From: a virus
Lineage: Duplodnaviria > Heunggongvirae > Uroviricota > Caudoviricetes
DNA: 16,588 nucleotides
Virus record (IMG/VR): IMGVR_UViG_2529293142_000008
Reading direction: 5' to 3' (one strand)
In this document: one piece after another, positions 5,521 through 16,588 of the stretch
How the letters are laid out: every line of letters starts with the position of its first letter
How positions within the stretch are numbered: the stretch's first letter is position 1
The notes under the pieces: model-generated
Told to the model about the DNA's origin: nothing
Databases searched by the model: none
What the model saw: only the letters and a program-made list of their open reading frames with translations
Made by a program: the position numbers and the translations under genes

Positions 5521-5943
5521 ATGTTCCTGAAAACCGAATCATTTGAACATAACGGCGTGACCGTCACGCTTTCTGAACTTTCAGCCCTGCAGCGTATTGA
5601 GCATCTCGCCCTGATGAAACGGCAGGCAGAACAGGCGGAGTCAGACAGCAACCGGAAGTTTACAGTGGAAGACGCCATCAGAACCGGTGCTTTTGTGGTG
5701 GCGATGTCCCTGTGGCATAACCATCCGCAGAAGACAAAGCAGCCTTCCATGAATGAAGCCGTTAAACAGATTGAGCAGGAAGTGCTTACCACCTGGCCCA
5801 CAGAGGCAATTTCTCATGCTGAAAACGTGGTGTACCGGCTGTCCGGTATGTATGAGTTTGTGGTGAATGATGCCCCTGAACAGGCAGAGGACGCCGGGCC
5901 TGCAGAGCCTGTTTCTGCGGGAAAGTGTTCGACGGTGAGCTGA
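5521..5943 (+). CDS. G: tail assembly chaperone G
   Basis: ATG 5521, 140 aa, ends in ...SAGKCSTVS. The slippery heptamer lies 6 codons before its stop. Confidence 0.9.
   Translation: MFLKTESFEHNGVTVTLSELSALQRIEHLALMKRQAEQAESDSNRKFTVEDAIRTGAFVVAMSLWHNHPQKTKQPSMNEAVKQIEQEVLTTWPTEAISHAENVVYRLSGMYEFVVNDAPEQAEDAGPAEPVSAGKCSTVS
5919..5925 (+). other. programmed -1 ribosomal frameshift slippery heptamer GGGAAAG (G to G-T)
   Basis: Heptamer G GGA AAG read directly in the G frame near the 3' end of G. It is the known lambda G-T slip site. Confidence 0.8.
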
Positions 5944-15460: not shown

Positions 15461-16588
15461 ATGGCAGTAAAGATTTCAGGTGTACTGAAAGACGGCACAG
15501 GAAAACCGGTAGAGAACTGCACCATTCAACTGAAAGCCAGACGGACCAGCAGCACGGTGGTGGTGAACACGGTGGCCTCTGAAAATCCGGATGAAGCCGG
15601 TCGTTACAGCATGGACGTTGAGTACGGTCAGTACAGCGTCATTCTGTTGGTGGAAGGATTCCCGCCGTCACATGCCGGGACCATCACCGTGTATGAAGAT
15701 TCTCAACCCGGTACGCTGAATGATTTTCTCGGTGCCATGTCGGAGGATGACGTCCGGCCGGAGGCACTGCGTCGTTTTGAACTGATGGTGGAAGAAGCGG
15801 CGCGTCACGCTGAGGAGGCGAAGAAGAATGCCGGAGAGGCGGAGACGTCCGCGAGGAATGCTGGCATATCAGCCAGTCAGGCAGAAGAGAGCGCTGCAAA
15901 TGCTGACACTTCAGCAGGGGATGCATCGGAGTCAGCCCGACAGGCGGCAGAAAGTGCAGCCTCTGCAAAGCAGTCAGAGGAAGCGTCCTCGTCCTCGGCC
16001 TCTGAGGCCGCTCAAAAAGCCAGTGAGTCATTACAAAGTGCAACAGATGCTGAGTTGTCAAAAAAGATGGCAGAAAGTGCAGCCGGTAATGCAGCCAGGG
16101 ATGCAACGACCGCAACAGAAAAAGCCCGGGAGTCAGCAGAAAGCGCACAGTCAGCGGAACAAAGCAGGATAGCGGCGGAAGAGGCCGTAAACCGAATCCC
16201 CACCGTGGTGGGACCTCCCGGGCCAAAGGGGGAACAGGGGCCCGCGGGTCCTCAGGGGCCGAAGGGTGATAAGGGAGAGCGCGGTGACACCGGCCCTGTC
16301 GGGGCAACCGGCGAACGGGGACCGGCAGGTGATGCTGGTCCGGCAGGCCCGCAGGGGCCGAAAGGCGACAGGGGAGAGCGGGGAGAGACCGGTCTGACGG
16401 GAAATGCAGGTCCACAGGGTCCAAAGGGAGATACCGGTGCGGCAGGCCCGGCAGGCCCACAGGGACCGAAAGGAGAAACAGGTGCGGCTGGCCCGGTGGG
16501 GGCAACCGGACCTCAGGGACCGAAGGGCGACCCGGGGGAGACACAAATCCGTTTTCGTCTGGGGCCGGCGAGCATTATTGAGACAAAC
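15461..16588 (+). CDS. stf: side tail fibre protein, N-terminal portion (3' end outside window), with collagen-like region
   Basis: ATG 15461 (MAVKISGVLKDGTGKPVENCTIQLKARRTSSTVVVNTVASENPDEAGRYSMDVEYGQYSV...). Open frame with no stop to the window end, which is why the ORF track omits it. The N-terminus matches the lambda Stf (orf-401) N-terminal domain as I remember it. Confidence 0.85.
   Translation, partial: MAVKISGVLKDGTGKPVENCTIQLKARRTSSTVVVNTVASENPDEAGRYSMDVEYGQYSVILLVEGFPPSHAGTITVYEDSQPGTLNDFLGAMSEDDVRPEALRRFELMVEEAARHAEEAKKNAGEAETSARNAGISASQAEESAANADTSAGDASESARQAAESAASAKQSEEASSSSASEAAQKASESLQSATDAELSKKMAESAAGNAARDATTATEKARESAESAQSAEQSRIAAEEAVNRIPTVVGPPGPKGEQGPAGPQGPKGDKGERGDTGPVGATGERGPAGDAGPAGPQGPKGDRGERGETGLTGNAGPQGPKGDTGAAGPAGPQGPKGETGAAGPVGATGPQGPKGDPGETQIRFRLGPASIIETN
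16211..16543 (+). repeat. collagen-like Gly-X-Y triplet repeat, 37 uninterrupted triplets, within stf
   Basis: Translation in the stf frame gives GPPGPKGEQGPAGPQGPKGDKGERGDTGPVGATGERGPAGDAGPAGPQGPKGDRGERGETGLTGNAGPQGPKGDTGAAGPAGPQGPKGETGAAGPVGATGPQGPKGDPGET. The unit GPQGPKG recurs five times. Confidence 0.88.

Follow-up and report, generated by a model that had tools for sequence, protein, structure and literature searches.

A collagen-stalked side tail fibre gene of the EPclA type in a lambda/434-type head and tail module

The closest described protein is EPclA (EHEC prophage collagen-like protein A), a polypeptide of 437 aa in which PfN is followed by the PCoil (116 aa), the collagen domain (111 aa) and PfC (Ghosh et al. 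2012, PLoS One 7:e37872, PMC3368898). Seven to eight copies are found in each of the Sakai and EDL933 genomes, for example ECs2717, ECs2941 and Z0982, and the collagen length of 111 aa is the modal one for EPclA and is also that of Sakai and EDL933 genes (PMC3368898). Recombinant EPclA is a trimer with an Ala-core coiled coil and appears as a hinged dumbbell of ~55-62 nm, with PfC acting as a trimerisation module that re-nucleates the triple helix (PMC3368898). The triple helix of this protein, near-identical to the one described here, was established by its collagen CD spectrum, its melting at 42 C and EM (PMC3368898). EPclB, the tail fibre protein of the short-tailed Stx2 phages 933W/Sp5 (ECs1228, Z1483), also contains PfN, PCoil, collagen and PfC modules, but it is 645 aa long, has two collagen domains split by a Pf2 repeat and belongs to podovirus-type tails. 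In the Ur-lambda virion, residues 1-94 of Stf form a 12-copy collar at the gpV/gpM junction, where each three Stf chains merge to give four trimeric fibres (PMC12617516). The Ur-lambda Stf has 774 aa, its gene also follows lom, and an Ala/Ser-rich trimeric coiled coil lies past the linker. Past codon ~117, the lambda protein comprises a coiled coil of 290 aa, a hinge, a gp37-like coiled coil in its distal part and a receptor-binding domain that recognises OmpC (PMC12617516). Lambda has neither collagen nor PfC, and the tail fibre assembly gene orf-194 is annotated downstream.

The window, i.e. the whole stretch of 16,588 nucleotides that was analysed, is a lambda-type head/tail module over its entire 16.6 kb. 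It is collinear at full length with phage 434 and the lambda h434 hybrids, with 96.6-96.7% identity, and the products of C, D, E, FI, FII, Z, U, V, G, H, M, L, K and I are 92-99% identical to those of lambda in their aligned parts (98% for gpV and 92% for gpM). The gene order at its end, J-lom-stf, is that of lambda-type tail modules. The features considered below are the following:

11314-14727: J (central tail fibre), 88% identity to lambda J overall
14797-15396: lom, protein 46-47% identical to lambda Lom
15423..15449, plus strand: intrinsic terminator hairpin after lom, just 5' of the stf ribosome-binding site; 8-pair stem (7 G-C pairs) followed by TTTTT (terminator scan)
15461..16588, plus strand: stf, EPclA type, 5' 376 codons; ATG at 15461 and no in-frame stop to the window end
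15461..15739, plus strand: collar domain for tail attachment, aa 1-93, corresponding to the beta-sheet portion of Pfam phage_tail_N
15761..16201, plus strand: PCoil, Ala/Ser/Glu-rich coiled coil predicted to be trimeric, ~21 heptads over aa ~101-247, with the hinge RIPTVV at its end; from heptad periodicity and composition
15801..15813, no strand: mosaic junction, end of the lambda-type similarity, codons ~114-118; from blastn ends, sliding identity and relatives
16211..16543, plus strand: collagen triple-helix domain, 37 Gly-X-Y triplets, 111 aa (aa 251-361); longest uninterrupted run, Pfam Collagen
16547..16588, plus strand: start of PfC, first 14 residues IRFRLGPASIIETN, cut by the window end; in frame and identical to JLK-2012

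Upstream of stf, the identity of J to phage 434 goes down to 93-95% in the distal part (12500-14500); given also the 88% to lambda, the host-range determinant of the window is an exact match to neither phage. The lom gene is a mosaic too, its last ~135 nt lying inside an 88%-identical lambda block that runs into stf, and no record of the exact window Lom protein was found in a large protein collection. The terminator which follows lom is annotated at the equivalent position in the phage 434 record, and its sequence is invariant in the three-way alignment.

The initial annotation had read the last gene of the window as a side tail fibre gene with the Stf N-terminal domain. This identification is borne out by the position of the gene after J and lom and by its domain matches, and the coordinates given for the parts of stf were all correct. 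Pfam phage_tail_N (PF08400) covers aa 1-133 with an E of 4.6e-69, and aa 1-93 align with residues 1-93 of the Ur-lambda Stf (PDB 9e7m/9mgh) with an E of 3.5e-53, 86 of the 93 residues being identical (92%, 7 mismatches). Over 1289 nt around stf, the window is 97.7-98.4% identical to the tail fibre genes of many phages, among them Stx1a/Stx2c-converting phages, 2851, JLK-2012 and VT1-Sakai; the VT1-Sakai (Sp15) gene is 97.8% identical to the window stf at the nucleotide level, and the best identity of the fragment among the fetched relatives is 98.5%. The phage 434 stf (OL657226, CPT_434_23) also encodes 437 aa with 37 triplets; it is 94.9% identical in nucleotides to the fragment, and over the 376 shared residues there are 21 differences. 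The copy is readable to 16588, and in relatives 61 codons and the stop lie past the window end. In comparison with EPclA, the order and the sizes of the domains are the same (PfN, 116-aa PCoil, 37 triplets, with the start of PfC visible); no architectural difference is seen in the part inside the window, and the two are separated by a few percent of sequence and by the cut at the window end. In contrast to EPclB, the window stf has one collagen domain and stands in a lambda-type long-tail module. The region thus very probably encodes, from the N-terminus on, 86% of a homotrimeric side tail fibre that is short, has the EPclA architecture and belongs to a siphophage of the lambda/434 type.

We located the point at which the similarity to lambda stops. 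By blastn, lambda and the window share 88% identity over 15262-15810, a stretch running from the last part of lom through the terminator to stf codon 117, and nothing significant past 15810; the sliding identity to lambda falls at the junction from 0.83-0.95 to 0.45-0.65. The matches of five lambda-like phages (PhiR26_1, PhiR29_1, Perceval, ev099 and PhiR49_1; seven records) end at 15801-15813. In the related contig L071, the N-domain is as in the window up to ELMVEEVAR and then diverges into a lambda-Stf-like fibre of 986 aa with Pf2-type repeats and a His-rich C-terminus. The proposal that stf is a mosaic is therefore upheld: the ends of the lambda and phage matches, together with the joining of the same N-domain to another fibre in L071, show a conserved attachment module joined to interchangeable stalks and tips within the first coiled-coil heptads. 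Lambda orf-401 aligns with the window protein over aa 1-160 only, in agreement with the earlier statement that collagen is absent from the lambda Stf. Lambda-type Pf2 repeats, a gp37-like distal domain and Tfa were not encountered, and there is no similarity to lambda past aa ~160; from this and the PfC ending of the relatives, only the attachment module is shared with lambda Stf.

The segment that follows had been described as an acidic Ala/Ser/Glu-rich stretch of low complexity. The composition was confirmed, residues 111-250 containing 42 Ala, 24 Ser and 22 Glu with a net charge of -12, but the description as mere low complexity does not hold. The autocorrelation of Ala peaks at lags 7, 14 and 21 (0.37-0.40) and the Fourier power is 4.9 at a period of 3.5 vs at most 0.5 at other periods, so that the heptad repeat of the segment has no break. 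Set out seven to a row, residues 101-247 stay in one heptad phase for ~21 heptads. Since the phage_tail_N profile has 134 positions and the collagen run begins at aa 251, the PCoil counted in the manner of the EPclA domains is aa 135-250, which is 116 aa. Past the same point, the lambda Stf has its own proximal Ala/Ser-rich coiled coil (residues 102-393); this class of segment is therefore common to both proteins, and only its sequence and the collagen differ.

The exact count of 37 uninterrupted Gly-X-Y triplets, first made in the initial annotation, and their coordinates, 16211-16543, were reproduced, and the search for a triple-helix domain returned Pfam Collagen with an E of 2.9e-18. Pro occupies 18 of the 37 X positions, there are six GPK and five GPQ triplets, and the G+C content reaches 71% in the collagen part vs 57% in the window. 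The heptad coiled coil flanks the collagen directly upstream, and the collagen is a single domain without interruption. DNA repeats do exist but are inexact: a 43-nt unit encoding G-x-x-GPQGPKG(D/E) occurs five times, its copies sharing 61-79% identity at spacings of 99, 63, 45 and 54 nt, two 45-nt units lie in tandem at 16406-16496, and the longest exact repeat in the collagen part is only 11 nt.

The last 15 residues of the window, QIRFRLGPASIIETN, depart from the collagen repeat. In the full gene of JLK-2012, which codes for 437 aa, Phage_fiber_C (PF06820) covers aa 363-426 with an E of 4.6e-35; PfC begins at aa 363, and so inside the window. The distal receptor-binding part had been placed past the window, but the 61 further codons of the relatives hold the PfC knob only and no long distal fibre. 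Nor do relatives carry a lambda-type tail fibre assembly gene downstream; in place of tfa they have a PfC paralogue of 89 aa. This ORF (at 7475-7744 in relative L001 and 2168-2437 in L102) is intact in all 50 evaluable intact loci. It starts 1 nt past the stf stop and is preceded by AGGAG within the last stf codons, from which the two genes look translationally coupled. Its product matches Phage_fiber_C (E 7e-36, Pfam) and phrog_576, and over residues 29-88 it shares 37% identity with the PfC of the fibre itself. It is labelled "tail fiber assembly chaperone" in the 434 record and "phage tail fiber C-terminal domain-containing protein" in RefSeq; no experimental basis was found for the chaperone label. 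Type III secretion effector genes adjoin the fibre genes downstream in relatives (L001 7857-11864, L102 2615-5701 and L104 3917-4844), including DUF1076/NleG-like, NleA, EspV, NleB-like, NleC, NleH-like and EspW. Several of these effector genes are fragments or pseudogenes, and classical phage 434 has effector genes too.

With a 67-nt word taken from the N-domain, 97 loci were collected in IMG/VR, 51 of which are intact genes ending in PfC; in a collection of genome contigs, an N-domain word of this length had no match. The collagen domain has 37 triplets in 39 of these 51 copies and, in the rest, 15, 20, 21, 27 or 36 triplets or a Gly substitution. In-frame length differences among the IMG/VR copies are of 9, 90, 144, 153 and 198 nt, all multiples of 9, with 2-11 nt of exact homology at the indel junctions; the complete E. 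coli genome CP148334 shows a 45-nt deletion that gives a 422-aa protein. These in-frame indels in relatives agree with the view, taken from the window, that the repeats are prone to slippage and recombination. Some loci were set aside in the course of this comparison. Contig L014 (IMGVR_UViG_2695420699_000004), a candidate for a two-collagen gene of the EPclB kind, has an N-gap in its collagen followed by a duplicated PCoil and collagen, and this double structure is probably a scaffolding artefact between prophage copies. In L057, stf seemed to be naturally fused with the ORF downstream, but what it has is a frameshift inside PfC. Among the IMG/VR contigs that have a 69-nt PCoil word in common with the window, the closest, L003, is a distinct, frameshifted copy.

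To assess selection, 37 distinct relative genes of 437 aa were aligned. In each of the four domains the variable sites cluster at third codon positions, the collagen domain having 12, 20 and 51 of them at codon positions 1, 2 and 3, and 1366 of the 1369 Gly positions retain Gly. The stf gene is under purifying selection in these relatives, and the excess at third positions supports the plus-strand frame. An antisense ORF of 286 aa (15684-16544, minus strand) was rejected as a gene on this pattern of variation: by their coordinates, the third positions of the plus frame are second codon positions of the antisense frame. This ORF, which covers the coding parts of the coiled coil and the collagen, seems to be a side effect of the GC-rich codons for Ala, Gly and Pro; in the lambda record a comparable antisense frame, 'orf206b', is annotated within orf-401. 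The 378-nt segment from the collagen to the end of the window is present in 718 of 5426 complete E. coli genomes (13%), at 5876 places, with a median of 9 per genome carrying it.

The initial annotation had raised the possibility that the repeat is an artefact of assembly. Regions of this kind are troublesome, as the N-gap and the duplicated PCoil/collagen stretch of L014 illustrate, and the 37 triplets might have come from expansion or collapse of the repeat. However, 37 triplets is the modal number among the intact independent copies (39/51) and is found also in the genes of phage 434, Sakai and EDL933; the 378-nt segment has a best match of at least 99% identity in 484 complete-genome records and a match covering at least 80% of it in 706; and an exact repeat of 11 nt is far under read length. 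An assembly artefact is therefore extremely improbable, and the occurrence of the segment in 718 of the 5426 genomes argues against a chance origin of the run as well. A surface collagen-like adhesin of the Scl-like kind, used by the host cell and not part of the virion, would be in line with the collagen-like proteins of other pathogens that act as adhesins, and Ghosh et al. 2012 leave possible a role for the bacterium itself (PMC3368898). We regard it as very unlikely here, as the N-terminus has no signal peptide or anchor and is instead a Stf collar domain 92% identical to a virion-bound structure, stf has its place in the late tail operon, behind J and lom, and known expression is tied to phage induction.

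More weight, but still a low probability, is given to the gene being a decaying pseudogene in a defective prophage, whose open frame would be the remnant of a fibre no longer made. Relative to both 434 and lambda, uncompensated single-base indels occur at 1846 (D), 2645 (E), 4382 (U), 6056 (T) and 9935 (L/K junction). The first four break the reading frames for the head decoration protein (D), the major capsid protein (E), the tail terminator (U) and the T portion of G-T, the tape-measure chaperone; phage 434 lacks those in D, E, U and T. About a quarter of the related IMG/VR copies are themselves frameshifted (18 of the 69 evaluable relatives, with premature stops), often directly past the collagen domain. 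Yet all 376 visible stf codons are in frame, and the frameshift hot spot past the collagen, 16550-16580, reads in the window as it does in intact genes. Some of the indels elsewhere, at 1846 and 6056, sit in homopolymer runs and may be sequencing errors. The window thus comes either from a defective prophage or from an assembly with indel errors; with 1-nt indels in D, E, U and T, the prophage may be defective and the fibre may never have been assembled in this host.

As a side tail fibre of the EPclA type, the protein can be given a likely build by analogy, the trimer, the coiled-coil and collagen conformations and the dumbbell being taken from the literature on near-identical proteins and the docking of the collar from the lambda homologue. 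Residues 1-93 would fold as the Stf collar domain and presumably dock the fibre of this phage at the gpV/gpM junction, just above the tail tip, so that 12 Stf copies would give 4 trimeric fibres. [quoted passage not shown] The tip is predicted to be a small trimeric PfC knob of ~64 aa, mostly past the window, which would nucleate the folding of the triple helix from the C-terminus and presumably contacts the host surface; no receptor for the PfC knob of EPclA-type fibres was found in the literature searched. In this scheme stf is a recombinational mosaic, in which the stalk and tip that follow the conserved attachment module from codon ~114-118 onward can be exchanged, and the length of the collagen stalk would shift in whole triplets via recombination between the imperfect repeats. 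It is a speculative and rather unlikely extension that the fibre assembly partner, the 89-aa product, is a new kind of chaperone or cap, which might template the fibre tip or co-trimerise with it, unlike lambda Tfa; separately, and as tentatively, changes of the collagen by whole triplets might tune the reach of the fibre to the thickness of the surface polysaccharide.

A collagen-stalked stf is already known, common and experimentally characterised. A paper of 2012 described its architecture and characterised it biochemically, classical phage 434 has it as well, and it occurs about nine times per genome in 13% of the complete E. coli genomes; the locus therefore carries little weight as a discovery. 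Its value is for annotation: the gene should be labelled as a collagen-stalked side tail fibre (EPclA type) and its Ala/Ser part as a coiled coil, and a short PfC knob, not a long receptor-binding domain, is to be expected downstream.
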